From an uncultured Candidatus Saccharibacteria bacterium (GTDB taxonomy: Bacteria > Patescibacteriota > Minisyncoccia > Spechtbacterales > HO2-43-30): a stretch of DNA of 64,000 bases. The number at the start of each line of letters is the position of its first letter. Position 1 is the first letter of the stretch. The stretch is taken from NCBI GenBank assembly GCA_964504205.1, contig CAZDDE010000002.1, forward strand, positions 11,505-75,504. The letters are read 5' to 3'. The position numbers and the translations under genes were made by a program. This document shows positions 9,042 through 55,174 of the stretch, in pieces. The notes under the pieces are model-generated. The model was given only the letters and a program-made list of their open reading frames with translations, did no database searches and was not told the DNA's origin.

Positions 9042-11540
9042 ATGTTTACTAGACATTTCTCAAAAGAAGTTATTTTGATTTCCCTTTTCTTTGTGGTCTT
9101 GGTTTGCGCCGGTATTTTCATGCATTACACGGGTTATACCTTTTTTGCAGTTGGCGAGTTGGGGCGCTATCAACCATGGCGCGACTATATTGAAGGCGGC
9201 TCCTGCCCCCTGCGTTCCGGAGACGATTTGTATGAGCATGATTTTATTTCAAGGGAACTGACATATCTTCGAGACAACCCATACCAACAAACATATTCGG
9301 AAAGAATAATGAGCGGCTACCCTATTCGCGATTCATATTTGGCCAATCAGTATACTGCCTTTAATTTTCTTAACAAATTTTTGCCAGCCCCTTCCAGCGT
9401 TAATTTTTCCGCTCTTTTGATGCTCTTTCTTAGTTTTACGCTCGGGTATTTTATCGCGCGCAGTTTAAATTTTAAGTATTACTATGCCGCGCTTCTTGGA
9501 ATTTTATCTATAACCCTTCAGTACGCGGGTCTCTTTGAGGCGTGGAACGCCGTTCTGATCGGATATGGTTTTGTAATCCTCGGGCTCATTTTGTTCTATC
9601 GGCATGATCGCGTCTACTGTTTTGTAATTCTTTCAATGTTGGGCGCTCTGCTTATCTTCCTATCTAGTATCTATCAATTTTACCTCTATACTGCGATCAA
9701 CCTCATGCTGTTGAGTTTGTTTTATTTTTCACTGGCACGCAAAAGGAAATTTTTGGTAATGTGGCTTGCGCTCATTGTTATTTTCGTAATTTCCGCGATG
9801 CTAGTCAATTTTTCAATGACGAGCCATTACGAACAACTTTCTTCTTCGCAGAAAATCAGTCATGACGTCGGTCTTGGGGAGTTAATTAAAAGGAAGATGT
9901 TTGCCACCGACCCTATTTCATGGATATGGGGGGGCGTCTCAACTCATACCAAGGTAATAAAACATATTTTGGGGGTAGAAGCCGGAGAGGAGTTCCTGAC
10001 ACTTATCCAAAATCGCGGAGTCCAAACGCAAGGGGCGGCCTATCTCGTCCTGATGGGTATTGGGCTTTATCTCTTATTTCACAAGTCCAAGCAGTACGTT
10101 TTCGTGATGCTTTTTTGGATTTTGTACGCAATGGGCATCTCACACCTCGCTTTTGTCTTTATATTTGGCGAGCCATTTTTGAGCGAAACATCAATTCCAG
10201 CGCCGTTAGTTGTGCTTATCTTGGGTAGTTTTGCGGTGATTTATGCCATAAAAGAACTTTTGGATCAACGTGTCAAGTTAAGCCATACCGCGAGAATTAT
10301 TGTTTTTGGGGGTGTCGGTGTCATTTTACTTGCTTCTGGTTCCATGCTGATTTGGGATGCGCTAGCTCATAAGCGGGTCCTGCTCGGAGTCATTTTTACA
10401 TTCCTTAGTGCGATCCTTCTTCTCCTTACGGTAAAAATTTTTACAGGAGGAAACAGAGTCGCTCCGCAACAGAAATTTTTATTTGCGGCGCTGATTGCCG
10501 TGGCGATAATGTTTCCAACCGGGGCGAAATTATTTCTATGCTTTAAGCCGGCCACTCTGGTTATGAACCGTTCACAGTTTTACTTTCCGCAAACAAAGTT
10601 TCAAGAAGCGATTGCGGAGAACCTGGATATTGCGCGTGTTGGGATGATTCAAACGTCCAGGGAAAAAAAAGACACACTTTTGCAGAACCTTCCCGTTTGG
10701 TTGGGGTTACCAACGCTAACCGGATACCGCAACACCATTTTGAAGGAATACTTTGATTTATATATGTATCATAAGATTCTGATAGAGAATGGCGAATCAA
10801 ACTCCGGAAAGTTATTTGAGGAATTTAGAACAAAAGTGGATTATGTGACTAATAAGTTGAGCGCGTTTGAAGTTAGCAATTCTAATTTTTTCCTTCCTCC
10901 TTGGACACAGCGTTACTTCGCCCTCCACGGCGTTAATGGCATCATCGGTCCGGCGGATTTGATCATAAGAAATGAGGATTGGGAGCTTGCCGCAAGAGCA
11001 GACGGACTCTCTCTCTGGAAGGATAGGAAAAAGCCGCACGATTTCTTTTTCTCGCGAGAATCCATAGTTATTCCAGACGACGTTTTCCGTATGGCATACA
11101 TTCTGAATAGTCCCGACTTTGATATGCAAAAACAGGTTGTGTTGAAGGAAGGATTTGGGGCTAAATACAGCACAACCGCAACTTCTACTTTTTCTTTTGA
11201 AATTTTAGAAAAAACAGATGGCTATCGCCTCATCGGCGCCGATCTTGACACGCAAGGTATTCTCACCATTCCAGTTACATACAATAAGCATTGGGAGGCA
11301 AAATTCTTGAGCGACAATGGCACAGCAACAGCTTTAAAAACAATGCATGCAAACCATGCTTTTCTAGGTGTTGCGCTTCCTCCCGGACAAGGAAAGGTTG
11401 AGTTAATATACAACGATAAGCCAAAATTACAGAATGGGATTGTAGCGGGAGGAGGTGTTATACTCTTGGCGGTATTAATACTTTTTACTAAGGTTTATAG
11501 CCGTCGCGTCAAGACTAAACTTAATGAGCTTGCTGAATAA
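9042..11540 (+). CDS. Large polytopic membrane protein with a C-terminal extracytoplasmic domain (YfhO/GT-C-like, putative glycosyltransferase)
   Basis: More than ten hydrophobic helices, then a ~300 aa soluble domain; the last 5 codons and the stop are supplied by the repeat element. Confidence 0.4.
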   Translation: MFTRHFSKEVILISLFFVVLVCAGIFMHYTGYTFFAVGELGRYQPWRDYIEGGSCPLRSGDDLYEHDFISRELTYLRDNPYQQTYSERIMSGYPIRDSYLANQYTAFNFLNKFLPAPSSVNFSALLMLFLSFTLGYFIARSLNFKYYYAALLGILSITLQYAGLFEAWNAVLIGYGFVILGLILFYRHDRVYCFVILSMLGALLIFLSSIYQFYLYTAINLMLLSLFYFSLARKRKFLVMWLALIVIFVISAMLVNFSMTSHYEQLSSSQKISHDVGLGELIKRKMFATDPISWIWGGVSTHTKVIKHILGVEAGEEFLTLIQNRGVQTQGAAYLVLMGIGLYLLFHKSKQYVFVMLFWILYAMGISHLAFVFIFGEPFLSETSIPAPLVVLILGSFAVIYAIKELLDQRVKLSHTARIIVFGGVGVILLASGSMLIWDALAHKRVLLGVIFTFLSAILLLLTVKIFTGGNRVAPQQKFLFAALIAVAIMFPTGAKLFLCFKPATLVMNRSQFYFPQTKFQEAIAENLDIARVGMIQTSREKKDTLLQNLPVWLGLPTLTGYRNTILKEYFDLYMYHKILIENGESNSGKLFEEFRTKVDYVTNKLSAFEVSNSNFFLPPWTQRYFALHGVNGIIGPADLIIRNEDWELAARADGLSLWKDRKKPHDFFFSRESIVIPDDVFRMAYILNSPDFDMQKQVVLKEGFGAKYSTTATSTFSFEILEKTDGYRLIGADLDTQGILTIPVTYNKHWEAKFLSDNGTATALKTMHANHAFLGVALPPGQGKVELIYNDKPKLQNGIVAGGGVILLAVLILFTKVYSRRVKTKLNELAE

Positions 11541-11671
11541 TTGCTTCTGGCTCATTCTCGCCCCGCCAGCGCGGGGCTGCGAGGCTCGGCCTGTTTTGCT
11601 CCGACTGCGGTCGGAGACCATGCCAAAACAGGCCTCAAATCCGCCAGAAGTAATTATTCAGCAAGCTCATT
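11523..11671 (+). mobile_element. MITE-like palindromic repeat element, copy 1 (~29 bp terminal inverted repeats, internal stem-loops)
   Basis: Left end aatgagcttgctgaataattgcttctggc and right end gccagaagtaattattcagcaagctcatt are reverse complements with one mismatch; near-identical copy at 14622-14769. Confidence 0.75.
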
Positions 11672-13815
11672 GGATCGTGAAGAGCGTAATTAACTGGGGA
11701 AAAAAGTACAATATAGACCTGCAAAAATTACTGCTTAATAGGTGGTTTTTGTTGATTTTAGCGATTAAAATTGTCGCCAGTTTTCTTTTTGCTTCAGATT
11801 TTATGCTGAAGGGATTTGTGCCGTTTGTAAATTACTTTGTATCTACCGGTTTTGATAATCCCTACAATTTTTTTTATAACCTGGGACAGCCAGAAGCATT
11901 TCCGTATCCGCCCGCCATGTTATATATACTTTCTGTCGCAAGAATTTTTTTCTATCCGGTCCTGATAATTGACTGGCCGACAGTAACCTTTGCTCACTTG
12001 TTCATCATGCGTATCCCTATTTTATTGGCTGATATTGCAATATATTTAATACTTTGTAAGTGGTTGGAAACGAAGGAGAAAAAAGTGCTGTTGTATTATT
12101 GGGCTTCGCCAGTCCTCTTTTTTATCAATTATTTTCACGGGCAACTAGACGTCATTCCCACTGCCTTACTTTTTATATCTCTACTCTTTTTGTTTGCCAA
12201 AAGGGAAGCTACAGCATTTATAATACTGGGTTTGGGCATTGTGGCCAAGACGCACTTATTGGCAGTATTACCGTTTTACTTTATCTACTTAATGATCAAT
12301 AGATATCCCGTTCAAAAAGTTATCTTGTATTCCATGTTGCCGCTCGGTGTCTTTTTTGCATTCGCGTGGCCGTATTTGGCATCGAGCGGATTTACGCAGA
12401 GTGTCTTTGGTACCGAAGAAGCCAACAAATTGTTTCTAGTGTTTGTTCCATATCTTCATAATGACTTGCGGCTTCTTTTAGCGCCGGCGGCAATTTTGAT
12501 TCTTTTCTTTAACTTCTTTTCGTATAAGAAATTAAACAAGGATGCCTTCTTGTTAATTCTTGGACTGTTGTTCACTATGCTCGTCTTGTTTGTACCCCCA
12601 ATGCCCGGCTGGTTTTATTGGTCCATTCCATTTTTCGTGTACTTTTTTGCAAAGTACAAAGAAATTCCAAAGTTTAGTTTTTGGTTCTTGAGCATTGCCT
12701 ATATGCTGTACTTTATATTTAGTAAGGATGCTAAAATTTTTTCTAGCTTCGAACTATTAAACCCCGGTTTCATAACCACCGTTAGTCCATTTACGACGCT
12801 TCACGCGCTGGGTATCAATATGGACATACTTGTTAATGTTATTTTTACCCTGCTGATAGCGGCTCTCGTCATGAACGCAGTGTGGATTTATCGTATGGGC
12901 GTGCGCAGTAATTTAGAATATAAGGTCACGGATAGCCCGACTTTAATTGGAATTGGAGGAGATTCTGGAGCCGGGAAAAACACCCTGGCCAATCTAATCG
13001 TCCAACTTTTTGGAAAGGATAATGCCGTTTGCGTTGAGGGCGATGACGCGCACAAATGGGAGCGGAATCATGAAAGTTGGGAAAAATACACGCATTTGAA
13101 TCCCAAAAGCAATTTGTTGCACCGCGATTTGCGGCAAACGTCGGAATTGAAAATGGGTGAAGCAATTAAGCGACAGCTTTACGATCATTCATCCGGCCAT
13201 TTCACATTACCAAAGGATGTCGAGCCGAGTAAGATTGTTCTATATACCGGTTTGCACCCGTTTTATCTGAGTAAAATGCGCAAGGCTTTTGATATAAAAA
13301 TATATGTGGATCCAAATGAAGATCTGCGCAAGCATTGGAAAATAATGCGCGACAAAAAATACCGAGGGTACTCCAGAGAAGAGGTAATTAGACAACTAGA
13401 ATCTAGAGAGGAGGATTCCGGAAAATATATACGTCCACAACGGGAATTTGCCGATATAATTATCACGCTCATGCCAAAAGGCGAGTTAATTGAAGATCAA
13501 GAGCCTGGCTTGTGGATGCGTATCATATGCGATAATTCATTACACGTTGATCCGTTTGTCGAGCAACTTTCAAGTTGCGGTACCGTGGATGTGCGGCATA
13601 GATACGAAGATGATTTGCATAGGCAATGCATTGAGTTCGACGGCCGTATTTCTGCCGAGGAAATAAACCAGCTTGCGCATGGCCTTATCCCTTACTTCGA
13701 GGAACTTACCGATGGCAAGCACAAATGGGCGGAGGATTTAGACGGCATACGCCAGTTGTTCATACTTTATTACTTTAGCGAATTGCGAAAGTCTAATCAA
13801 ACATATAATGCATGA
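11524..13815 (+). CDS. Fusion protein: N-terminal polytopic membrane domain (PIG-M/DUF2029-like GT-C mannosyltransferase-like) plus C-terminal phosphoribulokinase/uridine-kinase-family P-loop kinase domain
   Basis: C-terminus GIGGDSGAGKNTLA (P-loop), LYDHSSG, LYTGLHPF and DIKIYVDPNEDLRKHWKIMRDKKYRGYSREEVIRQLESRE track PRK-family motifs. The N-terminal 400 aa are hydrophobic with a GFDNPYNFF loop motif. The annotated N-terminus is repeat-encoded, so the true start is uncertain. Confidence 0.6.
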   Translation: MSLLNNCFWLILAPPARGCEARPVLLRLRSETMPKQASNPPEVIIQQAHWIVKSVINWGKKYNIDLQKLLLNRWFLLILAIKIVASFLFASDFMLKGFVPFVNYFVSTGFDNPYNFFYNLGQPEAFPYPPAMLYILSVARIFFYPVLIIDWPTVTFAHLFIMRIPILLADIAIYLILCKWLETKEKKVLLYYWASPVLFFINYFHGQLDVIPTALLFISLLFLFAKREATAFIILGLGIVAKTHLLAVLPFYFIYLMINRYPVQKVILYSMLPLGVFFAFAWPYLASSGFTQSVFGTEEANKLFLVFVPYLHNDLRLLLAPAAILILFFNFFSYKKLNKDAFLLILGLLFTMLVLFVPPMPGWFYWSIPFFVYFFAKYKEIPKFSFWFLSIAYMLYFIFSKDAKIFSSFELLNPGFITTVSPFTTLHALGINMDILVNVIFTLLIAALVMNAVWIYRMGVRSNLEYKVTDSPTLIGIGGDSGAGKNTLANLIVQLFGKDNAVCVEGDDAHKWERNHESWEKYTHLNPKSNLLHRDLRQTSELKMGEAIKRQLYDHSSGHFTLPKDVEPSKIVLYTGLHPFYLSKMRKAFDIKIYVDPNEDLRKHWKIMRDKKYRGYSREEVIRQLESREEDSGKYIRPQREFADIIITLMPKGELIEDQEPGLWMRIICDNSLHVDPFVEQLSSCGTVDVRHRYEDDLHRQCIEFDGRISAEEINQLAHGLIPYFEELTDGKHKWAEDLDGIRQLFILYYFSELRKSNQTYNA

Positions 13816-14639
13816 AAGGAGAAATTAAAAAGCTGATATTTATTTCGCGCAAAGTTGGATGTTTGCCCGAACTTGTGCAGGGGGGAGGGGGGAATACTTC
13901 AGTTAAGGATGCCAGAGGAAAGATGTATATAAAAGCTTCGGGTATAGCACTGTCTGATATGACACTAAAGAGGGGCTTCGCTATTGTTGGTGATGAGGGG
14001 AAAGTGGTTGATGCAGTATCGGGAGAGCGCCCATCTATGGAAGTGTCTATGCATCTCTATTTGCCTAAATATGTTATTCATACGCATTCGGTGCATGTAA
14101 ACATTTTTACATGCATTAAAAATGGCCGGCGTCATCTCATGGATTTTTTTAAAGACGAGAAGCCGCTGTATATTTCTTATAAAAATCCTGGCGAGGAACT
14201 TGCAGCAGAGATTAAAGAACAAGTGCATATCTATAAAAGGAAGCATCTTAGCGATCCAAAGATTATTTTTTTAGAGAATCATGGTCTAATAACATGCGGA
14301 GTTGATTCAAAGCGAACACTAGAACTGACGATGCGAGTTAATGCGGCAATCAAAAAGCATTTAACGGAATCAATAGCAAATTTTAAATTATTCACCTCAA
14401 CGCAAGAAGTTTTTGAGAGGCCGAAGCGGTGTTTATTTCCCGACATGGCCGTATTTCAGACGACACCAATGACGAAATCATCCAAAGAGATTCTTGCAGC
14501 ACACGAGTATGTGTTATATGGAATAAGGAAATTAGGTGCCACCCCCCGGTATCTAAAGAGCGCCGATGTCAAATACATTCAAAACATGGAAAGCGAAAAG
14601 CATCGCATGAAAGTGGCAATGAATGGGCTTGCTGAATAA
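13812..14639 (+). CDS. Class II aldolase/adducin-family protein (fuculose-phosphate aldolase / ribulose-5-phosphate 4-epimerase-like)
   Basis: GGGGNTS…SMEVSMH…HTHS metal-binding His pattern of the class II aldolase N-terminal domain; the stop codon lies inside repeat copy 2. Confidence 0.6.
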   Translation: MKGEIKKLIFISRKVGCLPELVQGGGGNTSVKDARGKMYIKASGIALSDMTLKRGFAIVGDEGKVVDAVSGERPSMEVSMHLYLPKYVIHTHSVHVNIFTCIKNGRRHLMDFFKDEKPLYISYKNPGEELAAEIKEQVHIYKRKHLSDPKIIFLENHGLITCGVDSKRTLELTMRVNAAIKKHLTESIANFKLFTSTQEVFERPKRCLFPDMAVFQTTPMTKSSKEILAAHEYVLYGIRKLGATPRYLKSADVKYIQNMESEKHRMKVAMNGLAE

Positions 14640-14769
14640 TTGCTTCTGGCTCATTCTCGCCCCGCCAGCGCGGGGCTGCGAGGCTCGGCCTGTTTTGCTC
14701 CGACTGCGGTCGGAGACCATGCCAAAACAGGCCTCAAATCCGCCAGAAGCAATTATTCAGCAAGCTCAT
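14622..14769 (+). mobile_element. MITE-like palindromic repeat element, copy 2
   Basis: Near-identical to 11523-11671 with the same terminal inverted repeats; supplies stop codons and in-frame leaders for the flanking genes. Confidence 0.75.
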
Positions 14770-14781
14770 GAATCATTCATT

Positions 14782-15555
14782 ATGCAAATAATTATTCCAA
14801 TGGCCGGGCAAGGGGAGAGATTTGCCGAAAAAGGCTACAAGGATATCAAGCCGCTGATTAAAGTTGGCGATAAACCAATTATTGAATATATCACTGAGAT
14901 GTTTCCGGGGGAAACAAATTTTTTGTTTATTTGCAATCAAGAACACCTTGACAGCACTACTCTTGGAAAAACGCTGCATAAGTTAATGCCCAAAGGCAGA
15001 GTGGTCGGCATTTCTGGCCACCAACACGGACCAGTTTGGAGCGTCTTGGCAGCAATGACTTATATCAACGATGAAGAACCCGCCATTGTGAATTATTGCG
15101 ATTTTAACTGTATATGGGATTACGAAAATTTTAAGCGCACTGTTGTTGACAAAGATTGCCATGGCGCAATTGCCTGTTATCGCGGTTTTCATCCCCATCT
15201 ACTTGGGCCCAATCTGTATGCTTCCTGTAGGGTAGATGCAAGTAACTATTTACAAGAAATACGCGAGAAATATTCCTTTAGCGAGAATAAAATGCACACA
15301 TATCAGTCTTCTGGCACATACTATTTTAAGCGCGGAGATTTAATAAAAAAATATTTTCAAGCATTGGTCAATCAAGATATAAATGTCAACAAGGAATACT
15401 ATGTAAGTTTGGTCTATAACTTGATGCTCAAAGATAATCTTCAAACCTATATTTATGAAATAGACAAGTTTTGCCAATGGGGAACGCCGCAGGACCTGGA
15501 GGAATTTCTCTACTGGCTAGATTATTTTAAAAAATCCTATGAAAAGCACAGTTAA
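14782..15555 (+). CDS. Sugar-phosphate nucleotidyltransferase (NTP_transferase/GT-A-like, LicC/TarI/IspD-like)
   Basis: IIPMAGQGERF N-terminal nucleotide-binding motif. The track ORF starts at 14623 inside the repeat; the ATG at 14782 is preferred. Confidence 0.7.
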   Translation: MQIIIPMAGQGERFAEKGYKDIKPLIKVGDKPIIEYITEMFPGETNFLFICNQEHLDSTTLGKTLHKLMPKGRVVGISGHQHGPVWSVLAAMTYINDEEPAIVNYCDFNCIWDYENFKRTVVDKDCHGAIACYRGFHPHLLGPNLYASCRVDASNYLQEIREKYSFSENKMHTYQSSGTYYFKRGDLIKKYFQALVNQDINVNKEYYVSLVYNLMLKDNLQTYIYEIDKFCQWGTPQDLEEFLYWLDYFKKSYEKHS

Positions 15556-16315
15556 TTTGATTCCTATGGCCGGCGCGGGAGCACGTTTTTTTAAGGAGGG
15601 CTTTCGTGATCCAAAATCCCTCATAGATATAGATGGAAAGCCAATGGTTATCCGGGCGACAGAATGTTTACCCGACGCAGATAGATGGATTTTTGTTTGT
15701 AGAAAGGAGCATTTGGACAATTATCCGCTCGCGGTAACACTGAAAAAGGCATATCGTGGATGCACAATTCTTGACATTGATTATCTTAGCGAGGGCCAAG
15801 CTTCAACATGCCTCATGGCCGAGAAGTATATAGATTTAGATAACCCTTTATTAATTTCAGCATGCGATAATGGGATTGTATATAACACGCCCAAGTTAGA
15901 TACGATGATACGGGACAAAGCGGTCGATGCCTTGATTTTCACCTTTAGAAATAATGCGATTGTAGCGCGTAACCCCAAGATGTATGGTTGGGTTAAGGCC
16001 GATGATAAGCAAAGAGTCGAGCGAGTGTCGGTGAAAGTGCCGATTAGCGATAATCCAATGAGTGACCATGCCGTGGTTGGGACATTCTGGTTTCGCAAGG
16101 GGGAGTATTTTATTCATGCCGCAAAAGAGATGATTGCAAAAAATACGAGGATTAACAACGAATTTTATGTTGATGAATGTTTAAACAATGCCGTCGCACG
16201 CGGACTGAATGTGAAAGTGTTTGAGGTGGATAAATATATATGCTGGGGTACCCCAGATGAGTTGAGAACCTTTAACTACTGGCGCGAGTATTTTAATATC
16301 CATAAATTTTATTGA
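15539..16315 (+). CDS. Sugar-phosphate nucleotidyltransferase, tandem paralog
   Basis: LIPMAGAGARF motif; the C-terminus (KYICWGTPDELRTFNYW) parallels the upstream paralog. Confidence 0.7.
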   Translation: MKSTVNLIPMAGAGARFFKEGFRDPKSLIDIDGKPMVIRATECLPDADRWIFVCRKEHLDNYPLAVTLKKAYRGCTILDIDYLSEGQASTCLMAEKYIDLDNPLLISACDNGIVYNTPKLDTMIRDKAVDALIFTFRNNAIVARNPKMYGWVKADDKQRVERVSVKVPISDNPMSDHAVVGTFWFRKGEYFIHAAKEMIAKNTRINNEFYVDECLNNAVARGLNVKVFEVDKYICWGTPDELRTFNYWREYFNIHKFY

Positions 16316-16318
16316 GCC

Positions 16319-16897
16319 ATGATAAAAATCGTCCATCGCGTTAATTCTACTAGGGAACTTACGAAGATTCCGGTTAGCTATGGTGTGGAAGTGGATATCC
16401 GCGGGTATGGTGATGAGCTTGTGCTTAACCATGAGCCTCTTGCCGGAGGAGAAAATTTCGAAGGGTATTTAAAAGAATATGGTCACGCTTTTGCTATATT
16501 CAACATTAAAGAAGCAGGTATAGAACAGCGCGTTATTGACTTAGCCGGGGAATTTAATATAACGAATTTTTTTCTCTTAGATGTTGAATTTCCATTTATA
16601 TATAAAGCCACACGATGCGGATTTAGGAGTATAGCTATAAGGTATAGTGAGGATGAATGTATTGACAGCGCATTGTTATATAAAAGTAGGGTTGATTGGG
16701 TCTGGATTGACACAAATACTCGCTTGCCACTAGATAGGAAGGTAGTTGAGCAGTTGCGCGGTATCAAAACGTGCCTAGTTTCCCCTGACAGGTGGGGAAG
16801 GCCAAACGATATATTAAAGTACAAACAACAAATGAAGGCCCTAAACTTTGAGCCGACAGCAGTCATGGCCGGGAAAGATGTCATACATTTGTGGTAG
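16319..16897 (+). CDS. Glycerophosphodiester-phosphodiesterase-like (GDPD/PLC-like TIM-barrel) protein, short form
   Basis: IVHRV…VEVDIR…DELVLNHE parallels the GDPD HR…E.D…HD catalytic arrangement. Confidence 0.4.
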   Translation: MIKIVHRVNSTRELTKIPVSYGVEVDIRGYGDELVLNHEPLAGGENFEGYLKEYGHAFAIFNIKEAGIEQRVIDLAGEFNITNFFLLDVEFPFIYKATRCGFRSIAIRYSEDECIDSALLYKSRVDWVWIDTNTRLPLDRKVVEQLRGIKTCLVSPDRWGRPNDILKYKQQMKALNFEPTAVMAGKDVIHLW

Positions 16898-16913
16898 TGT
16901 AAGGTCATAACCT

Positions 16914-17627
16914 ATGCCCGCGTTATCTATCATAGTGCCTTGTTATAACGAGGCAGAAAACATCCTGCTTATTTTAGAAAAGTTTTCACGTGTGCTGAAG
17001 GGGCTTTCCGCGGAATTGATTTTAGTAAATAATGGCTCAACTGATGAATCCGGCGAGATCTTGAGAGGTGAGCTGAAAAATCCGTTATATTGCTTTGCGC
17101 GTGTTGTCAGTATCGCAAAAAATATCGGCTACGGGCATGGTATCATGACTGGCTTGCGCGAGGCGAAGGGTGATGTTTTGGCATGGACACACGCGGATTT
17201 GCAAACTGACCCCGCGGATGTTATACGGGCTTATCAAAAATTTCGCGAGCTGGAAAAAAAAGATGCTAATATTTTAATCAAGGGGCGACGCCTTAATCGC
17301 AGACTTGGCGAAAGATTTTTTACCTTTGGGATGGCGTGTCTTGCAAGTTTTGTTTTGGGGGAGGCGCTATATGACATCAATGCTCAGCCGAAAATGTTTT
17401 CCAAATCATTTTTGCTCAAGATGAAAAATCCGCCGGACGATTTTTCACTCGATCTTTATCTGATGTATCTTGCAAAACATTTTAATTACAAAACATACAC
17501 CATACCCGTGCATTTTGGCGAGAGGATATACGGCGAATCAAAATCGGCGGCTAATTTTAAATCGCGTTGCCGCACAATTATGCGCACGTTCAAATACACG
17601 TTTGCTTTACGTTCCAGAATGCGATGA
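16914..17627 (+). CDS. Glycosyltransferase family 2 (polyprenol-phosphate/DPM1-like)
   Basis: SIIVPCYNEAENI…VNNGSTDESGEIL GT2 signature. Confidence 0.8.
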   Translation: MPALSIIVPCYNEAENILLILEKFSRVLKGLSAELILVNNGSTDESGEILRGELKNPLYCFARVVSIAKNIGYGHGIMTGLREAKGDVLAWTHADLQTDPADVIRAYQKFRELEKKDANILIKGRRLNRRLGERFFTFGMACLASFVLGEALYDINAQPKMFSKSFLLKMKNPPDDFSLDLYLMYLAKHFNYKTYTIPVHFGERIYGESKSAANFKSRCRTIMRTFKYTFALRSRMR

Positions 17628-37624: not shown

Positions 37625-38518
37625 ATGCACGTTTTAGTTACCGGCGGAGCCGGTTTTATCGGGAGTAATTTGGCGGAGCGGCTTATCGGGGAAGGTCACC
37701 AAGTCAGCATAATCGATAATCTTTCCACTGGAAAACGCGCTAATCTCCGCTCCGATGCCGAGTTTTTTGAATTTAATATCGCGGATTTAGATTCTATTAA
37801 AGATATTTTCCAAAGGAAAGATGTTGTTTTTCATGTTGCCGCGATCCCAAGAATATCCCGTTCTATCGAAAATCCCGCGGAGACATTTAACTCTAACGTT
37901 ACCGGAACCCTTAATGTTCTCTTGGCGGCAAGAGACGCTGGCGTGAAGAGGGTTGTATACAGCGCATCATCTTCCGCATATGGCATACAGGATAAACTTC
38001 CTCTATCAGAGGATATGCCGGCAAGACCGCTTAATCCCTACGCGCTTTCCAAGTACATTGGCGAAGAATTATGTAAAGAGTTTACAGATTTATACGGACT
38101 TGATACGATATCTTTACGCTATTTTAATGTCTATGGTCCCCGCATGGATATGCAAGGCGAATATGCCACGGTTATTGGAAAATTTTTACAGCTTAAATCC
38201 GGGGGAAAGCCGCTGACTATCGTCGGCGACGGCAAGCAGACAAGAGACTTCACACACGTCAGCGACATTGTAGAAGCAAATATGCTTGCTTCCCAAATAG
38301 CGCGCGGCGGAGGCGAAATTGTAAATATCGGGGCAGGCAATAACCGTAGCGTTCTTGAGATAGCGGATATTATCGGAGGAGAACGCGTGTATATTCCGGA
38401 AAGACTGGCAGAGATACGAGACACTTTGGCGGATATAAGCAAAGCGAAAAAGATACTGGGCTGGGAACCAAAAGTCATCCTAAAGGAAGGAATTAATCAA
38501 TTACTATCTTATGTTTAA
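37625..38518 (+). CDS. NAD-dependent epimerase/dehydratase (extended SDR, GalE/WbpP-like nucleotide-sugar 4-epimerase)
   Basis: VTGGAGFIGSNL and YSASSSAYG…YALSK catalytic triad region. Confidence 0.75.
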   Translation: MHVLVTGGAGFIGSNLAERLIGEGHQVSIIDNLSTGKRANLRSDAEFFEFNIADLDSIKDIFQRKDVVFHVAAIPRISRSIENPAETFNSNVTGTLNVLLAARDAGVKRVVYSASSSAYGIQDKLPLSEDMPARPLNPYALSKYIGEELCKEFTDLYGLDTISLRYFNVYGPRMDMQGEYATVIGKFLQLKSGGKPLTIVGDGKQTRDFTHVSDIVEANMLASQIARGGGEIVNIGAGNNRSVLEIADIIGGERVYIPERLAEIRDTLADISKAKKILGWEPKVILKEGINQLLSYV

Positions 38519-39338
38519 GCCATCACAGTTTGGCATCATTGGGGCAGGGTATGTCGGCGGCGCAATAATGTATCATTTCAAGGAGTGCAAGATTTGGGAT
38601 AAATTCGTTCAGACGCCGCATACTTTGGAGGAGGTTTTGGCCCAGCCGCTCATTTTTGTTTGTCTTCCGACGCCCTATGCAAAAAAAGCCGTTAGAAAGG
38701 GGCAAACTGTTTTTAGGGGGGCGGATATATCCGCGCAGGTGGAAAATTTAGACAAATTCCCCAAGGGGCGCATTGTGGTTATAAAATCAACTATACCCCC
38801 GGGAGGCTCCGACTATTTTGCAAAAAAATATCCCCATTTAGATATTATCTTTAACCCAGAGTTTTTAACCGCAAAATTTGCTAAAGAAGATTATGGTTTT
38901 CCGGATAAGCAGATCTTGGGTTATACAAGTGAAAAAACCAAGAAGATTTGCGAGGAACTGATGCCGGTTTTACCGCGAGGGCAGTCGCTGATAGTTCCAG
39001 CAGTTGAGGCCGAACTTATCAAGTACTCTATCAATAATTATTACGCGAAGAACGTTGTTTTTGCCAATCAAATTTATGACGTTTGCCAAAAACTTGGGGC
39101 AGATTACGACAACGTTCGGCTTGGTTTTACGATTGATAAGCGTATTAACGACAGCCATTTTGGGATATTCACTGATGGCTATCGCGGCTACTCGGGCGCT
39201 TGCTTGCCGAAAGATATGAAGACTTTCATTCAGCTTGGCAAAGAGCTGGGTTTGGATTTGAAGCTGCACAAAATCGTTGATGCTCTAAACGAAAAGCTCT
39301 TACGAGATGGGAAGAAAATCAAAACGCAAAAAACTTAA
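38511..39338 (+). CDS. UDP-glucose/GDP-mannose dehydrogenase-family protein, short form lacking the usual C-terminal domain
   Basis: GIIGAGYVGG NAD motif, STIPPGGS and NPEFLTAKFAKEDYGFPDKQILG central-domain motifs; only 275 aa. Confidence 0.5.
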   Translation: MFKPSQFGIIGAGYVGGAIMYHFKECKIWDKFVQTPHTLEEVLAQPLIFVCLPTPYAKKAVRKGQTVFRGADISAQVENLDKFPKGRIVVIKSTIPPGGSDYFAKKYPHLDIIFNPEFLTAKFAKEDYGFPDKQILGYTSEKTKKICEELMPVLPRGQSLIVPAVEAELIKYSINNYYAKNVVFANQIYDVCQKLGADYDNVRLGFTIDKRINDSHFGIFTDGYRGYSGACLPKDMKTFIQLGKELGLDLKLHKIVDALNEKLLRDGKKIKTQKT

Positions 39339-47999: not shown

Positions 48000-48039
48000 G
48001 TTGTTGACTAACCCCTTTCGCCAAAGCCTGCCTGCCGGT

Positions 48040-48098
48040 AGGTAGGCAACTGCCCTGCTTCGCTAAGCGCGAAGCGAGGCGAGCGGGGCTGTTTTTTT
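48040..48098 (+). terminator. Rho-independent terminator candidate
   Basis: GC-rich palindrome gcttcgctaagcgcgaagc/gagcggggctg followed by a T7 run. Confidence 0.5.
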
Positions 48099-48107
48099 GT
48101 TTGCACT

Positions 48108-48143
48108 TGACACAATAATAGTCTTTATAGTAATATGTTTTTG
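48108..48143 (+). promoter_or_regulatory. Sigma70-like promoter candidate (TTGACA – about 18 nt – TAATAT)
   Basis: ttgacacaataatagtctttatagtaatat, upstream of the small ORF and flotillin operon. Confidence 0.4.
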
Positions 48144-48270
48144 GCAATTAAGGGCAATTAAGCACATTTAAAAGCTATACAAGGAGGTGGCATCATGTAA
48201 AGGAAAGGAATTGCGCTTTGCATAGACATATTTCACTGAATACCAAAAATATATTAGAGAGGAGGTAGGT

Positions 48271-48375
48271 ATGGCTCTAGGTATTTTCATAGTGGGAGTG
48301 TTACTATTCGGGACAGGCGTCTTTATCGGGTATCACTGGGGCAAGGCAGAGGGAACGCATAACGGGAGAGGATAG
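48271..48375 (+). CDS. 34-aa single-TM peptide (MALGIFIVGVLLFGTGVFIGYHWGKAEGTHNGRG), translationally coupled to the flotillin gene
   Basis: Strong RBS GAGAGGAGG 6 nt upstream; hydrophobic core; stop is 7 nt before the flotillin ATG. Absent from the ORF track because it is shorter than 60 aa. Confidence 0.35.
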   Translation: MALGIFIVGVLLFGTGVFIGYHWGKAEGTHNGRG

Positions 48376-48381
48376 GATTAG

Positions 48382-50115
48382 ATGATAGAGATGACATTCG
48401 GGTTAATACTTGCGGGCGTAGGGGTAGCAGGCTTTGCAATTTCATCAAGGCTTCCGACTAGAGGCAGGGATGGGACGCCATGGCGATTGCTGGGTTTCCT
48501 TGGAAGTGGAGTAGTAAGCATCGTGGCGTTGTTCCTCCTTTTCCTCACTTCGTTCACAACGATAGATTCTGACGAAATAGGACATCTTAAGCGCGTCTAC
48601 TTTGGAGACGCCATGCCATCTGGGCAAGTTATCGCTTTGAAAGGGCAGAATGGCCCGCAGGCGGAAATACTTTCCCCGGGGTTTCATTTCCGGCCATTAC
48701 TTAAAGTAATCTATAGAGTGGAACGCTTTCCTGTTGTGGAGATACCCAGTAATCAATATGGCTATCTTGTTGCTCTAGATGGGCAGCCGCTGGGTGAAGG
48801 TGAGATCCTTGCTCCCGAATGGCCACACGAACAGTTTGAGCAAATGCTTGACGCTGAATATTTTCTGCAGCATGGAGGTAAAAAGGGCCCTCAACTTACC
48901 ATCTTGCCTCCGGGGAAGTATAGGTTCAACCATTATTTGCTCCATCATACGGTCGAGTCGGCAACAAACGTTTCCGCGGGCTTTGTTGGAGTAATTAAGT
49001 CAAACGTCCAGGCAAGGCCAAGCACAGAGTGCAACGAAATTTTTTACGCGGCAGAGGGCGCATTGTCAGTTCCTCTTTTCCCAAAGGGCTGTATAGGGGT
49101 GTGGACTGACCCCTTGCAGCCGGGGACGTTTTACCTAAATGTACATGGCTACGAGATGACCGAAGTCCCTACACGCGCGCAAGCGTGGGAGTATAAGGGA
49201 GGGTATATTCGGCACTTTATTGATCTTAGGGTAGATCAGGATGGCACAATAAGGCAAGTTGAGAGAACTGAAGATGTTCCCATTCCAATCGATGCGGCAG
49301 ATCCAGCGATTACAGTGCGTGTAGAAGGATGGATAGTGCCGCTAGAACTGCGTGTGATAGCCCAGGTTGCCCCAGAAGACGCGCCATTTGTAGTGGCGTC
49401 TGTAGGAGACTTGAAGGCAGTAGAGGATAAAATTCTTACTCCTACGATTCGAAGCGTTGTAAGAAATATTCTCGGTGAGCCAGGGAGAACGGTTCTTGAC
49501 CTTCAAAACAAACGAGCTGAGCTTGAATCGCTTGTAGAGGCCGCCATCAAACCCGAAGGCAAAAAAGCAGGAGTGACTATCCAAGAGGTGCGTTTTGGTG
49601 AGCCAATTCTTCCTCCCGAGTTGCTTGTCGCTATACTCCGCAATCAGCTCGCCGTTCAGCTTCAGCAAACCTACAAGGAAGAAAAGACAGCTCAAGATGA
49701 GCGGATTAGAACTGAACAGGCACGTGCAACAGCCAATCAACAGTCAAGATTGGTTGAAGCGCAGATTAGTGTAGCAGTTGCAACGCAACAAGTGCAGGTA
49801 GCGGAGCAGCAGAAGCGTGCGGCACAATTGCGAGGAGAAGGCAGAAAGCTTGAACTTACTGAAATAGCTATCGGCCAGCAAGCGCAAGTCGCTGTGCTTG
49901 GACAGGACCGAGTAATGCAACTGGAGGCGTTGCAAAAAGCGCTTGATGCCGCTGTAAGTAATCCGAACATAGTTAAGGTTCCGGCCATCATGGTTGAAGG
50001 CGGCGACGAGAGTGGCCTTGCAGGATTTGCCGCCATACTTGGCGGCGCAAGCAACCTCGCAAAAGGTAGTACAATATTTGATAGCCCTGAAAAGGAAGAA
50101 AAAGAAAAGCCATAG
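48382..50115 (+). CDS. Flotillin-like SPFH/band-7 protein (FloT/YuaG-like)
   Basis: N-terminal TM, SPFH domain, C-terminal Ala/Gln/Glu-rich coiled-coil flotillin repeats. Confidence 0.7.
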   Translation: MIEMTFGLILAGVGVAGFAISSRLPTRGRDGTPWRLLGFLGSGVVSIVALFLLFLTSFTTIDSDEIGHLKRVYFGDAMPSGQVIALKGQNGPQAEILSPGFHFRPLLKVIYRVERFPVVEIPSNQYGYLVALDGQPLGEGEILAPEWPHEQFEQMLDAEYFLQHGGKKGPQLTILPPGKYRFNHYLLHHTVESATNVSAGFVGVIKSNVQARPSTECNEIFYAAEGALSVPLFPKGCIGVWTDPLQPGTFYLNVHGYEMTEVPTRAQAWEYKGGYIRHFIDLRVDQDGTIRQVERTEDVPIPIDAADPAITVRVEGWIVPLELRVIAQVAPEDAPFVVASVGDLKAVEDKILTPTIRSVVRNILGEPGRTVLDLQNKRAELESLVEAAIKPEGKKAGVTIQEVRFGEPILPPELLVAILRNQLAVQLQQTYKEEKTAQDERIRTEQARATANQQSRLVEAQISVAVATQQVQVAEQQKRAAQLRGEGRKLELTEIAIGQQAQVAVLGQDRVMQLEALQKALDAAVSNPNIVKVPAIMVEGGDESGLAGFAAILGGASNLAKGSTIFDSPEKEEKEKP

Positions 50116-50127
50116 AAATTTAAGGCA

Positions 50128-50152
50128 TAAGGCGAGAAATCTCGCCTTTTTT
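50128..50152 (+). terminator. Rho-independent terminator
   Basis: ggcgagaaatctcgcc hairpin followed by a T6 run. Confidence 0.6.
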
Positions 50153-50208
50153 GTTTATACGTGCAGATATTTGATGGGTAGTCAGTTTAATGCTATCTTA
50201 GAGTAACC

Positions 50209-52770
50209 ATGTCAATGTTTTCTAAAATCTTCGGCGACCCCAATGAGCGGGAGATAAAAAATCTTCAGGAAACTGTCAATCAAATTAACGCGCTGGAGCC
50301 GGAAATCGCGCAGCTTTCAGATGGCGAGATGAAAGAAAAAAGCGCAGATTTGCCGCGGGCTTTTGCGATGGTGCGCGAGGCGGCAAAACGAACGCTTGGT
50401 CAGCGGCATTTTGATGTGCAGTTAATGGGCGGAATGGTTTTGCACCAGGGTAAGATTGCCGAGATGAGAACTGGCGAAGGGAAAACTCTCGCCGCGACAA
50501 CCGCGGTATATTTCAACGCGCTTGCCGGCAAAGGCGTGCATGTTGTTACAGTCAATGATTATTTGGCAAAAAGAGACGCAGTCTGGATGGGGCAGATATA
50601 TGCTCTGCTGGGTCTTTCTGTTGGGTGTATAACACATGAAGCAGCGTATTTATATGATGAAAATTATGGGGGCCGCGATGAGGCGCGCGATGCGCTCGGC
50701 GGATTTAAGGTCGAAGATCGCTATCTTCGGCCATGCGCCCGCAAAGAAGCTTATGCGGCTGATATAACGTATGGCACGAATAATGAGTTTGGTTTTGATT
50801 ACCTGCGCGATAACATGGCGTATAGTATGGACCAAATGGTCCAGCGCGGGCATTATTTCGCGATTGTTGACGAAGTGGACTCTATCTTAATAGATGAAGC
50901 GCGCACGCCGCTGATCATTTCCGCTCCGGATGAAGAATCAACCAGTCTTTACAAAACTTTCTCGCGCCTTGTGCCGCAATTGAAAGAGAATGAGGATTAC
51001 AATGTTGACGAGAAGATGAAAGCCGCAACGATTACTGAAGAAGGCGTCAAGAAGCTGGAGAGAATTTTAGGAATAGAGAATATTTACGATTCCACAAAGG
51101 GCGGCGGCATCAGATACGTCCATCAAGTTGAACAAGCCCTCAAAGCGCGGGTGCTTTTCGAAAGAGATCGTGATTATGTGGTGAAGGACGGAGAAGTTGT
51201 GATTGTTGATGAATTTACCGGCCGCTTAATGCCGGGGCGCCGATATTCCGAGGGTCTGCATCAAGCGCTTGAAGCCAAAGAAGGCGTTAATGTGCAAAAA
51301 GAATCGCGCACGCTTGCAACCATTACTTTTCAAAATTATTTTCGCATGTACAAAAAATTGGCGGGCATGACTGGCACAGCGATGACTTCGGCCGAAGAGT
51401 TGGATAAGGTTTATAAACTGCAAGTTGTTTCTATCCCAACTAATAAGCCGATGATACGGCAGGATAAGTCCGATTTTGTTTTTCGCACAAGACGCGGAAA
51501 GATGCAGGCAATTGTTGGTGAGGTTAAAAAACGCCATGCCAAAGGCCAGCCGATGCTGATTGGCACAACCAGCATCCAAAACAACGAAGTTCTTGCTTTA
51601 TTTTTAAGCAAAGCTGGCATTCAGCACGAAGTTTTAAATGCCAAGAATCATGAACGCGAAGGCGCGATCATTGCCCAAGCCGGTAAGCCCGGCGCTGTTA
51701 CCGTGGCAACTAATATGGCTGGCCGCGGCGTGGATATAGTTTTGGGCGGCAATCCGCCCGACGCGGAGGCGGCCCAAAAAGTTCGTGAAGCAGGCGGGTT
51801 GTTTGTGCTGGGTACCGAGCGGCACGAAGCGCGGCGCATTGACAATCAGCTGCGCGGACGTTCCGGGCGTCAAGGCGATCCGGGCGAAAGCCAGTTTTTC
51901 GTATCGCTGGAAGACGATTTAATGCGCATATTTGGCGGCGATCGCATTAAAAAATTAATGGAAACCCTGCATATTCCCGAAGACCAGCCGATTCAAAGCG
52001 GACTTATTTCCGGTTCCATCGAAAGCGCGCAGGGCAAGATAGAGGGCTATCACTTTGACACGCGAAAACATGTTTTGGATTACGATGAGGTGATGAATAA
52101 ACAGCGGCAGGTGATTTACACGCGGCGAGCAGAAATATTGAAGAAATCCTTTAATATTTCAGAAATGATTGAAGCGGAGCTTGGCAAATTTATAAATTTT
52201 CACACTTCTGGCGAACATCCTGCCGCGTGGAATGTCCAAGAAATTCACGAAAGTATTAAAAGTCTTGTTGCGGTAGCCGGCGATTTTAATAATCAGCTTT
52301 CGGAAGTTATTAAAAAGCATGGCGAGCCGGAAGATTTGCGCGATGATCTATTTAATCTTGCGCTGGGCGCGGTTGAGAAAGCGTATGATGATAAGGAAGA
52401 GAAACTCGGCTCGGAAAAAATGCGCGAGCTTGAAAGATTTGTCATGCTGCGCACCCTTGATATGCTATGGATGGAGCACCTTGAAACAATGGAGAGTTTG
52501 CGCGACAGCGTGCGGCTCCGCGCTTACGGGCAGAAAGACCCCCTTGTTGAATACAAGCGCGAAGGGCGCGAGTTGTTTGAGCGGCTGCTCGCAAATTGGC
52601 AGACGCAAGTCGTGCTGACGATATTTAAGGTGGAATTAAAGGAGACACCTTACGGCGAGGAATCAAGAGTTAGAAGTGAAGGATCGGGAAAGATAGGAGG
52701 GAGCATCGGTCGCAATGATCCCTGCCACTGCGGGAGTGGAAAAAAGTATAAAAGGTGTCACGGGAAGTAA
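50209..52770 (+). CDS. secA: Preprotein translocase ATPase SecA
   Basis: Full SecA architecture including the C-terminal CHCGSGKKYKRCHG zinc-binding tail. Confidence 0.95.
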   Translation: MSMFSKIFGDPNEREIKNLQETVNQINALEPEIAQLSDGEMKEKSADLPRAFAMVREAAKRTLGQRHFDVQLMGGMVLHQGKIAEMRTGEGKTLAATTAVYFNALAGKGVHVVTVNDYLAKRDAVWMGQIYALLGLSVGCITHEAAYLYDENYGGRDEARDALGGFKVEDRYLRPCARKEAYAADITYGTNNEFGFDYLRDNMAYSMDQMVQRGHYFAIVDEVDSILIDEARTPLIISAPDEESTSLYKTFSRLVPQLKENEDYNVDEKMKAATITEEGVKKLERILGIENIYDSTKGGGIRYVHQVEQALKARVLFERDRDYVVKDGEVVIVDEFTGRLMPGRRYSEGLHQALEAKEGVNVQKESRTLATITFQNYFRMYKKLAGMTGTAMTSAEELDKVYKLQVVSIPTNKPMIRQDKSDFVFRTRRGKMQAIVGEVKKRHAKGQPMLIGTTSIQNNEVLALFLSKAGIQHEVLNAKNHEREGAIIAQAGKPGAVTVATNMAGRGVDIVLGGNPPDAEAAQKVREAGGLFVLGTERHEARRIDNQLRGRSGRQGDPGESQFFVSLEDDLMRIFGGDRIKKLMETLHIPEDQPIQSGLISGSIESAQGKIEGYHFDTRKHVLDYDEVMNKQRQVIYTRRAEILKKSFNISEMIEAELGKFINFHTSGEHPAAWNVQEIHESIKSLVAVAGDFNNQLSEVIKKHGEPEDLRDDLFNLALGAVEKAYDDKEEKLGSEKMRELERFVMLRTLDMLWMEHLETMESLRDSVRLRAYGQKDPLVEYKREGRELFERLLANWQTQVVLTIFKVELKETPYGEESRVRSEGSGKIGGSIGRNDPCHCGSGKKYKRCHGK

Positions 52771-52806
52771 AAAGCCCAATTCCGAAGAATTGGGCAATAG
52801 GACTGG

Positions 52807-53121
52807 TTATGACTTTTTTGCAACTTTCCGCACTTTCTGTTCGAGGCGAGCAAGATCTTTCTCGCGAGCATCTTTGTGAATGTCACAACCCATGACGCTG
52901 TAAAGAGCTTCGAAGTCACCGACAGTAAAGCTAGAAAGCGGCAGGTTCTCAAGCTTTTCGCGAAGTTTGAGGAGTCGATCGATTCGCCGATCATGTTCAT
53001 CGGCTCCAGCAGGATCCATTTCACGCCAGTAATGCCCCATCTGATCACCTCCTGAATGATTGTCGGATACTGATATGATATTAACAAAGAATGGTATTGC
53101 AGTCAACAAATTCGCTCCCAT
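52807..53121 (-). CDS. Hypothetical protein
   Basis: ORF only; no recognisable family. Confidence 0.2.
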   Translation of the reverse strand: MGANLLTAIPFFVNIISVSDNHSGGDQMGHYWREMDPAGADEHDRRIDRLLKLREKLENLPLSSFTVGDFEALYSVMGCDIHKDAREKDLARLEQKVRKVAKKS

Positions 53122-54282: not shown

Positions 54283-54342
54283 AAAAGTCATTGCGGAAAA
54301 CAAAGAAGAGTTTGAGGATAATATCCGATCTATATTGGTTTC

Positions 54343-55113: not shown

Positions 55114-55174
55114 CTTGACATAATTTAGTATATATAGTAAGATACCTAGTCTGCAAAACTTAGCAGACAGTTCT

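Follow-up and report, generated by a model that had tools for sequence, protein, structure and literature searches.

Two cistron junctions of one tightly packed polysaccharide (sugar)-synthesis operon, in an uncultivated groundwater bacterium, carry near-identical copies of a 148-nt palindromic element. On balance we favor reading it as a non-autonomous, low-copy MITE-like element with terminal inverted repeats (TIRs), recently inserted twice at tolerated junctions; it would thus be a TIR family without earlier description, though of an ordinary kind, the miniature transposon. The window, by which we mean the whole stretch of DNA analysed, is 64 kb long.

The copies lie in the same orientation at a spacing of 3099 nt and bracket exactly two genes, for a PRK fusion and an aldolase, as the original prediction had it. 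Where two or three differences had been counted by eye, there are two substitutions over the 148 nt, at element positions 5 (A/G) and 129 (T/C), leaving the copies 99% identical with a longest common identical run of 123 nt (coordinates in the table below). Similarity ends abruptly at both element ends: the flanks of the two copies are unrelated, and the base directly after the element is T at copy A and G at copy B. Long AT-rich TIRs surround a GC-rich core, the GC content being 55% for the whole element, 64% for its core and 44% for the window. The TIRs, predicted at about 29 bp, measure 28-29 bp in each copy and are perfect except for one G.T per copy; the variable Y that had been read in gcaagcYcat is T in both. 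A 24-nt TIR core occurs exactly four times in the window, at both ends of each copy, and not at all in shuffled sequence.

Features of the two element copies and their junctions (window coordinates)
Feature	Position	Strand	Remarks
Element copy A (148 nt)	11523..11670	+	between 832-aa membrane protein gene and PRK-fusion gene
Copy A, left arm of outer stem (TIR)	11524..11551	+	contains last codons of upstream gene, TAA 11538-11540
Copy A, hairpin domain 1, GC-rich	11556..11584	+	fold
Copy A, hairpin domain 2	11588..11634	+	11-bp stem enclosing 7-bp hairpin; fold
Copy A, right arm of outer stem (TIR)	11643..11670	+	TIR pattern search, fold
Native start of PRK-fusion gene, GTG	11677..11679	+	6 nt past copy A; N-terminus of L016 ortholog aligns
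ATGAAT, left member of 6-bp direct repeat	14619..14624	+	overlaps first 3 nt of the shared 148 nt
Element copy B (148 nt)	14622..14769	+	between class II aldolase gene and NTP-transferase gene
Copy B, left arm of outer stem	14623..14650	+	contains TAA 14637-14639, the aldolase stop
Copy B, hairpin domains 1 and 2	14655..14733	+	identical to those of copy A
Copy B, right arm of outer stem	14742..14769	+	TIR pattern search, copy comparison
ATGAAT, right member of 6-bp direct repeat at copy B	14768..14773	+	flank comparison
Native start of NTP-transferase gene, ATG	14782..14784	+	12 nt past copy B; five orthologs

Folded as RNA, the 148 nt reach an MFE of -94.4 kcal/mol, against -46 for shuffles (z = -13.3). 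The predicted outer stem of 28 bp pairs element positions 2-29 with 121-148 and encloses two hairpin domains, at positions 34-62 and 66-112; three internal hairpins had been proposed, and the hairpins are indeed there, but CTCCGAC/GTCGGAG is nested in the second, which leaves two domains. Within domain 2 of copy A, the GGAG at 11613-11616 falls in the inner stem and the ATG at 11620-11622 in the internal loop. Both inter-copy substitutions keep the pairing of the + strand RNA (A-U to G-U, and G-U to G-C); on the opposite strand they would be A.C mismatches. This is a hint at the RNA level, from two substitutions that are far too few for covariation and would behave this way by chance about 1/4 of the time. 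Immediately past the outer stem the sequence reads TGGATCG (copy A) or GAATCAT (copy B); there is no U-tract and hence no intrinsic (Rho-independent) terminator. Promoter and terminator scans of the element found nothing above background except a weak match to an internal 6-bp hairpin, and Rfam, at gathering and E-value thresholds, gave no relevant match to it.

Both insertion sites are empty in relatives, which, on comparison of the loci, argues for insertion. At the copy B site, the relative L009 (aldolase 83% identical) reads ...GCAATGAAT AATTTATAG AACAGCTT ATGCAAATAATT..., with the element absent and the flanking genes abutting or overlapping; in six more loci (L010-L015), at about 55% identity, the aldolase and NTP-transferase gene calls lie 10-52 nt apart, and nhmmer with the element found no match in them. 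At the copy A site of L016 (upstream protein 67% identical), the upstream gene and the PRK-fusion ortholog overlap by 17 nt, again with the element absent. The 99% identity of the copies, together with a GC content above that of the host, especially in the core, shows that the element entered the lineage recently. The original prediction had suggested looking for target-site duplications, and one copy offers a candidate: at copy B a perfect 6-bp direct repeat, ATGAAT, flanks a 143-nt core and is single in the empty site of L009, and random flanks give a repeat of at least 6 bp in 1.2% of simulated trials (P = 0.012). At copy A the direct repeat is no longer than 2-3 bp, which is chance level.

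Judging from orthologs, the insertions hit the last few codons of each upstream gene, the left arm having replaced the native C-terminal residues by (N)-x-LAE and a TAA stop. The element gives each upstream gene its last five codons and stop, as predicted, the two ORFs ending in ...NELAE* and ...NGLAE*; aldolase orthologs end in ...VAMNNL and similar, not in ...NGLAE.

The same groundwater project yields, in four assemblies or runs, four independent contigs of short reads that match the junctions at 99.96-100% identity. Copy A is covered at its left junction by L017 and at its right one by L006, and copy B at its left junction by L006, L007 and L008; the right junction of B is the only one of the four without an independent contig. 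All four contigs end inside the element, which breaks short-read assemblies of its host organism. L006 (k = 139) breaks off in copy B, exactly k-1 nt past the first base of that copy; the identical run of the two copies is only 123 nt. A third copy, inferred from MEGAHIT/Logan contig breaks, was considered and dropped, because low coverage keeps the contigs of this organism short throughout and further breaks lie within the core hairpins. Exact-protein look-ups with the edge genes led only to short-read contigs of 2-4 kb. The closest SecA relatives are only about 60% identical, their sources being MAGs labelled 'bacterium' and a Saccharimonadales MAG, and the taxonomy of the host could be narrowed to an unclassified, possibly Patescibacteria-like bacterium.

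Besides A and B, the window holds no further copy or fragment of the element. The TIR 20-mer used as query for the collection scans (TGCTGAATAATTRCTTCTGG) had no match in viral contigs, two lone matches in 185,579 species genomes and three in 241 million metagenome records, all of them bare 20-mers without an element around them and at chance level; neither a scan of viral contigs for the core motif of the element nor a 'distant'-mode blastn search of plasmids and phages found any match. ORFs inside the element reach at most 49 aa. Its six-frame translation had no match among 5.8 billion proteins in a search that detects only stretches of at least about 25 residues, and no exact protein record was found for two ORFs within copy B (33 and 43 aa). 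No transposase, recombinase or integrase is encoded in the 64 kb, by Pfam among other evidence, nor a Y1 transposase, and no autonomous IS sharing the TIRs was found in the window or by the 20-mer scan of genomes, metagenomes and viral contigs. Since no more copies were found in the searched collections, the 'repeat family' numbers two known copies, 3.1 kb apart in one operon. Our literature search found no published MITEs in Patescibacteria or CPR bacteria.

Each copy is in frame with its downstream gene, as had been noticed originally: ORFs 11524..13815 and 14623..15555 cross the element with the frame open throughout, and each copy contains GGAGaccATG (11613-11622 in A, 14712-14721 in B), the GGAG 3 nt before the ATG. 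The original prediction saw here a leader, MPKQASNPPE(V/A)IIQQAH, shared by two proteins. The element would then be a donor of translation initiation, comparable to Neisseria REP2, that supplies the upstream stop together with its own RBS (GGAG) and ATG and leaves both enzymes with a shared N-terminal extension of 17-21 residues (MPKQASNPPE(V/A)IIQQAH...). Repeats with RBS and ATG fused to ORFs have precedent (PMC3184786), and the native starts lie 6-12 nt from the 28-bp stem, the modelled accessibility of start A falling from 0.54 without the element to 0.23 with it. We nevertheless find such a donor role, extension included, doubtful, as orthologs use the native start codons and none has a counterpart of the leader. 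All five NTP-transferase orthologs begin MQI(I/V)IPMAG, equivalent to ATG 14782 in the window, and the nearest PRK-fusion ortholog begins MKALLDWGRKYN, equivalent to GTG 11677; by this alignment the native start of each downstream gene is intact, just past the right arm. For the PRK fusion a single NCBI gene call was recovered, P0124 (687 aa), whose start lies still further downstream, past the element. Shine-Dalgarno-like motifs are seldom used, preceding 9 of 55 genes here and none in the island with the element, while the GGAG of the element is too near its ATG and paired within a 7-bp hairpin, and the internal ATG has a modelled accessibility of only 0.36. Look-ups of three start-codon variants per downstream protein (leader-bearing or native) in a collection of 15 billion proteins returned no exact record, which is uninformative on annotation. 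Being in frame at two sites has a chance of 1/9, and sharing both orientation and phase about 1/18, which is not compelling. Because orthologs start at the equivalents of GTG 11677 and ATG 14782, the shared leader is no ancestral feature, and we probably see in it an ORF artefact; most likely, neither the continuous reading frame nor GGAGaccATG is more than incidental. These misleading long ORFs could cause automated annotation to add a spurious 50-residue N-terminal extension to two enzymes.

The copies might instead be a non-mobile structured inter-cistronic RNA that selection maintains, recombination or gene conversion having copied it between junctions; it could be, for example, an RNase III/E processing site, an mRNA stabiliser or a translational-coupling hairpin. 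The very stable fold, the pairing kept by both substitutions, the shared orientation and phase, the lack of a target-site duplication at copy A and the absence of further copies from the collections searched would suit such an RNA. We still judge it unlikely, for its candidate roles as for its origin: long perfect TIRs around a compositionally foreign core are a hallmark of transposon ends, not of a regulatory hairpin, copy B has its 6-bp direct repeat, and no relative of the operon carries the element, which is therefore not a conserved regulatory feature; Rfam offers no match, and two substitutions are too few for covariation. Direct repeats that bracket exactly two genes could also bound a mobile cassette (PRK fusion plus aldolase), as a composite of two MITEs or as attC-like integron sites, and MITE pairs are known to mobilise intervening DNA (PMC10969869). 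However, in L016 the upstream gene is followed by the PRK-fusion ortholog, and in L009 and L010-L015 the aldolase gene by the NTP-transferase gene, so that the bracketed genes are native to the operon; moreover, the window lacks an integrase, and direct sequence inspection found no RYYYAAC/GTTRRRY core sites at the element ends. Synteny, missing core sites and missing integrase led us to set aside both the composite-transposon and the attC readings, a cassette being very improbable. Simple local duplication of a coding or intergenic segment, or an error of assembly, would account for there being only two copies, close together, but is hardly credible and already contradicted by the abrupt similarity ends and unrelated flanks, by the reproduction of three of four junctions in independent assemblies and by the empty sites in relatives. 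The original prediction would have been abandoned had two findings coincided: the first was made, in that the searched collections held no further copies, and the second, segmental duplication of coding sequence, was not.

The MITE-like reading agrees with the small mobile palindromic (MITE/Correia-type) behaviour first proposed, as seen in the unrelated flanks, the empty sites, the absence of coding capacity and the lack of an RNA-family match. In common with MITEs, the element is small and without a transposase gene, has TIRs, and is present or absent at orthologous sites. Its mobilisation would be in trans, by a putative transposase encoded elsewhere in the genome. Co-transcribed with the operon, the elements would fold into a three-way hairpin closed by the 28-bp stem, which would set the new upstream stop and the downstream start at its base and would be long enough for an RNase III-type substrate. 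Ribosomes terminating in the left arm would open the stem, so that the junctions would stay tolerable. Probably the insertions are not adaptive but neutral, or regulatory to a mild degree; the shared orientation and reading phase could point to selection for function rather than neutral insertion. Perhaps, though we would not expect it, the element is more than tolerated and serves, in a genome largely without Shine-Dalgarno sites, as a portable 'junction adaptor' for operons whose genes overlap. If so, the left arm would end the upstream gene and the 28-bp stem would put its stop beside the downstream start, the terminating ribosome melting the stem and unmasking that start. Translation would thereby be coupled through RNA structure, perhaps with tuning by RNase III, and a longer alternative isoform could begin at the in-frame internal ATG. 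The shared orientation and both shared reading phases would be explained if this geometry were under selection. The PRK and aldolase step of the glycan pathway could also be turned off by the direct repeats recombining with each other.

If we read it correctly, the element represents a new sequence family of MITE-like type, from an uncultivated groundwater bacterium that branches deeply. It alters the C-termini of two proteins, and it is a clean natural example of a palindromic insertion between translationally coupled, overlapping genes that destroys neither. If more copies exist, it would make a useful strain marker for the lineage.

Among known systems, Chunjie, Correia, ERIC and RUP provide precedents for the same behaviours (PMC3184786, PMC10969869). 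REP/BIME sequences are different, being clustered, GC-rich imperfect palindromes of 20-40 nt with a RAYT transposase, whereas here there are 148 nt with long AT-rich TIRs and no Y1 transposase in the window. Rickettsia palindromic elements (RPEs) are also palindromes of about 150 bp that are tolerated in coding regions via an open frame; an RPE sits within its gene and lengthens the protein by an internal peptide segment, whereas here the upstream gene is stopped after five codons and the frame that stays open precedes the native start of the next gene. Correia/NEMIS elements of Neisseria resemble ours in size (about 104-157 bp), long TIRs and co-transcription with neighbours. They duplicate a TA target; with ends taken as ATG...CAT, copy A has TA/TG flanks here and copy B has GA/GA flanks, not TA...TA. 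Correia is moreover a Neisseria-specific family of hundreds of copies with an IHF site and promoter elements, while our host is an unrelated groundwater bacterium and no promoter-like site stands out. In mRNA, the Correia TIR stem is cleaved by RNase III (PMC10969869), which suggests a possible mechanism for the element here. Repeat ORFs of ERIC, RUP and BOX are fused in frame to 3' or 5' ends of genomic ORFs (PMC3184786), the same phenomenon as NxLAE* and the open 'leader' frame; ERIC/IRU and RUP/BOX are other sequence families, of Enterobacteria and pneumococci, with tens to hundreds of copies, mostly intergenic and at 3' ends of transcription units. Neisseria REP2, a repeat whose RBS and ATG are joined to downstream ORFs (PMC3184786), comes nearest as a precedent for the idea of an RBS/ATG donor, but is no TIR palindrome and supplies the annotated start, whereas the native starts here lie outside the element. 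[quoted passage not shown] 2008), in the summaries given by PMC3184786 and PMC10969869, is A+T-rich and 178-235 bp long, has TIRs of 21 bp and clear direct repeats of 9 bp, and occurs in dozens of copies. By description rather than sequence, our element differs in its 148 bp, GC-rich core and 28-29-bp TIRs, and in having a direct repeat at one copy only and two known copies. By those summaries, it shares with Chunjie the character of a small, recently active TIR element whose copies overlap gene ends, insertion within an operon with gene order kept, and a very stable RNA fold (-98 to -130 kcal/mol in Chunjie, -94 here).

A palindromic, MITE-like element bounded by terminal inverted repeats (TIRs) was recently gained at two cistron junctions of one operon, in two direct copies whose starts lie 3099 nt apart. 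The original prediction of a near-identical pair holds, the copies differing only at element positions 5 (A/G) and 129 (T/C); outside the element, similarity ends sharply on either side. The predicted TIRs are also there, with the end sequence AATGAGCTTGCTGAATAATTGCTTCTGGC, and the window has four occurrences of their 24-nt core, one at each end of each copy, vs none in shuffled sequence. G+C is 55% in the element (core 64%, arms 41%) and 44% in the window. The proposed folding check gave an MFE of -94.4 kcal/mol for the + strand RNA, vs -46.4 ± 3.6 for shuffles (z = -13.3), and -89.4 kcal/mol for the - strand RNA. A 28-bp outer stem encloses two hairpin domains; the three internal hairpins described earlier are thus present, but as two domains, with a 7-bp hairpin nested in the second.

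Coordinates of the element copies, their operon and the putative sugar-gene cassette (window positions unless a locus is named)
Feature	Position	Strand	Remark
Element copy A	11523-11670	+	148 nt, direct repeat of copy B
Element copy B	14622-14769	+	148 nt, direct repeat of copy A
Element-bearing operon	9042-17627	+	
Putative sugar-gene cassette	11677-17627; L010 4337-8546 and 12429-16388; also L011-L015		

Relatives show what the junctions look like when empty. In L009, a JGI metagenome locus with an 83% identical aldolase, the junction reads ...GTGGCAATGAAT AATTTATAG AACAGCTT ATGCAAATAATT..., so that the aldolase has AMNNL* as its C-terminus, with the NTP-transferase beginning 8 nt further on; nucleotide identity to the window runs until GCAATGAAT and again from TTATGCAAATAATT, and 148 nt are missing in L009. 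At six more distant loci (L010-L015, ~55% identity), the gene-call gap from aldolase to NTP-transferase is 10-52 nt and nhmmer found no match to the element. At the copy A junction, a locus with a 67% identical upstream protein (L016) has a 17-nt overlap of the upstream gene with the PRK-fusion ortholog, without the element. Judged by these comparisons, both copies are insertions, and the bracketed PRK-fusion and aldolase genes are native to the operon. Since those genes are native and the copies have unrelated flanks, neither a segmental duplication nor a composite-transposon cassette can explain the pair.

Misassembly is ruled out by independent short-read contigs, which reproduce both junctions of A and the left one of B, three of four in all, at 99.96-100% identity. 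Every such contig covering the region (L006, equivalent to window 11572-14759, and L007, L008 and L017) stops within the element, as expected because it is a repeat. L006, assembled with k = 139, stops exactly k-1 nt past the first base of copy B, while the identical run of A and B is only 123 nt; this might point to another identical copy, or to a converted allele, in the sample concerned, an uncertain matter given low coverage.

The proposed check for target-site duplication gave a candidate at copy B and none at copy A. At copy B the 6-bp sequence ATGAAT stands, without mismatch, as a direct repeat on either side of a 143-nt core (14619-24 and 14768-73) and is single in the L009 empty site; with random flanks and equal boundary freedom, a repeat of at least 6 bp arose in 1.2% of simulated trials. 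Deleting the core and one ATGAAT in silico yields an aldolase with the C-terminus ...VAMNHSLCK* and an overlap with the next start, in keeping with the style of the operon. At copy A the flanking repeat is just 2-3 bp, the chance level. The transposon reading is weakest here: a candidate duplication at one copy only, and no further copy or parent IS found.

The left arm of the element provides new stop codons: in both copies the upstream ORF ends, as predicted, with a TAA inside the arm (NELAE* and NGLAE*; element positions 16-18). The replacement of upstream C-termini is a real protein-level effect, aldolase orthologs ending ...VAMNNL, ...VAINNQT or similar vs ...VAMNGLAE in the window. In both copies one frame does stay open across the whole element and on into the gene downstream, and the GGAGaccATG is present, as had been noted; the proposal of an N-terminal leader shared by two proteins is not supported. 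The five NTP-transferase orthologs all have the N-terminus MQI(I/V)IPMAG, corresponding to ATG 14782, 12 nt beyond copy B, and the N-terminus of the nearest PRK-fusion ortholog, MKALLDWGRKYNLDL, aligns with GTG 11677 (MKSVINWGKKYNIDL), 6 nt beyond copy A; the NCBI call for this gene (P0124, 687 aa) starts even more downstream. Native starts are thus kept just past the right arm, and the 49-53 element-encoded residues had no counterpart in a six-frame peptide search or among the PRK-fusion and NTP-transferase orthologs. That a second copy should share orientation and both reading phases by chance (~1/18) is suggestive at most. The element GGAG lies 3 nt before its ATG and is base-paired within the 7-bp hairpin, and SD-like motifs (GGAG/GAGG/AGGA) precede only 9 of 55 long ORFs in the window, all of them outside the glycan island (1-47 kb), which suggests that initiation in the source organism may be mostly SD-independent or coupled. 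With the ortholog starts outside the element, we regard a genuine leader or RBS donor as very unlikely. Most likely the continuous frame is incidental, and the leader an annotation hazard and not a protein feature.

On balance we favor a recently inserted, largely neutral MITE-like element, probably tolerated because of its location and its layout at the junctions. Both inter-copy substitutions preserve + strand pairing via G-U, which is compatible with RNA-level constraint, at n = 2 events. Since no promoter or terminator signal stands out in the element, it would be co-transcribed with the operon, and the 28-bp stem would bring the new stop together with the downstream start, at the foot of a single helix. 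A simple accessibility model gives the native start of junction A an unpaired probability of 0.54 if the element is absent, 0.23 if it is present and 0.48 with a ribosome footprint over the upstream stop; at junction B it barely shifts (0.47, 0.39 and 0.39). Modelled accessibility therefore lends modest support, from junction A only, to a ribosome-mediated unmasking of the downstream start. A selected RNA module is unlikely, though somewhat less so than a leader or RBS donor.

The window comes from a bacterial chromosome (SecA, MurB, an AddA-like helicase-nuclease) and includes a large island of genes for nucleotide sugars, nonulosonic acids and glycosyltransferases; it encodes no transposase, integrase or RNase III. 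The operon runs: 832-aa membrane protein, copy A, PRK/uridine-kinase fusion, class II aldolase, copy B, two NTP-transferases, 192-aa protein, GT2 glycosyltransferase. Its remaining same-strand junctions are 4-17 nt overlaps or 3-16 nt gaps, and overlaps of 4-17 nt are common in the window. A cassette of PRK/uridine-kinase, class II aldolase, two NTP-transferases and a ~200-aa protein of unknown family recurs in relatives, in tandem duplicate in L010, and looks like a putative uncharacterised pathway producing an activated sugar. The proteins of the window and P0126-P0129 join the kinase to a ~440-aa polytopic membrane domain; L010-L015 encode it as a stand-alone 303-aa protein, with a GtrA-like gene before it.

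We also note some peculiarities of the window: (i) G+C rises from ~40-45% in the glycan-synthesis island (1-47000) to ~45-50% in the housekeeping part (48000-64000, secA onward), and GC skew is steadily positive from ~28 kb; the island may differ in composition or have been gained by horizontal transfer. (ii) After secA, 918 nt (52771-53688) have no long ORF although genes are densely packed elsewhere in the window; they hold only small minus-strand ORFs (109, 104 and 72 aa) and no repeats, tRNA or Rfam match. (iii) A 275-aa UDP-glucose/GDP-mannose dehydrogenase-like ORF (38511-39338) overlaps the next gene (Wzy_C+TPR) and has a partial N-terminal and a central domain without the C-terminal domain; possible explanations are truncation or decay of the gene, or a mis-set start.

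Exact-protein look-ups place the same organism in Ohio groundwater metagenomes (PRJNA512237; PMC11549363). The nearest representatives of its SecA (50209-52770) among 1.84 billion proteins are just 54-61% identical, so the lineage is deep-branching and poorly sampled; they derive from MAGs whose label is just 'bacterium' (one on a 1.03-Mb contig) and from a Saccharimonadales MAG, and the source is possibly near Patescibacteria. The suggested search for further copies returned none: nhmmer and blastn found no other copy or fragment in the 64-kb window, and the TIR 20-mer had no true match in viral contigs, 185,579 species-representative genomes or 241 million metagenome records, which presumably include the JGI samples with the 83% and 67% relatives. 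Plasmids, phages, Rfam and a six-frame peptide search gave no match, nor did exact look-up of two internal ORFs. Of the source genome itself, the analysis covered the 64-kb window and ~2 kb outside it. The family is thus rare or lineage-restricted, in a poorly explored host lineage; its sequence appears new, and literature searches on Patescibacteria and CPR turned up nothing relevant to elements of this type.

Every behavior of the element already has precedent in known repeats. Chunjie repeats, as described in PMC3184786 and PMC10969869, share insertion within an operon and a very stable fold. RNase III processing has been shown for Correia elements (PMC10969869), and by analogy the perfect 28-bp duplex here is a plausible substrate. 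ORFs of ERIC, RUP and BOX repeats are fused to 3' or 5' gene ends (PMC3184786), and Neisseria REP2 carries an RBS and ATG (PMC3184786), much as this element carries GGAG and ATG.
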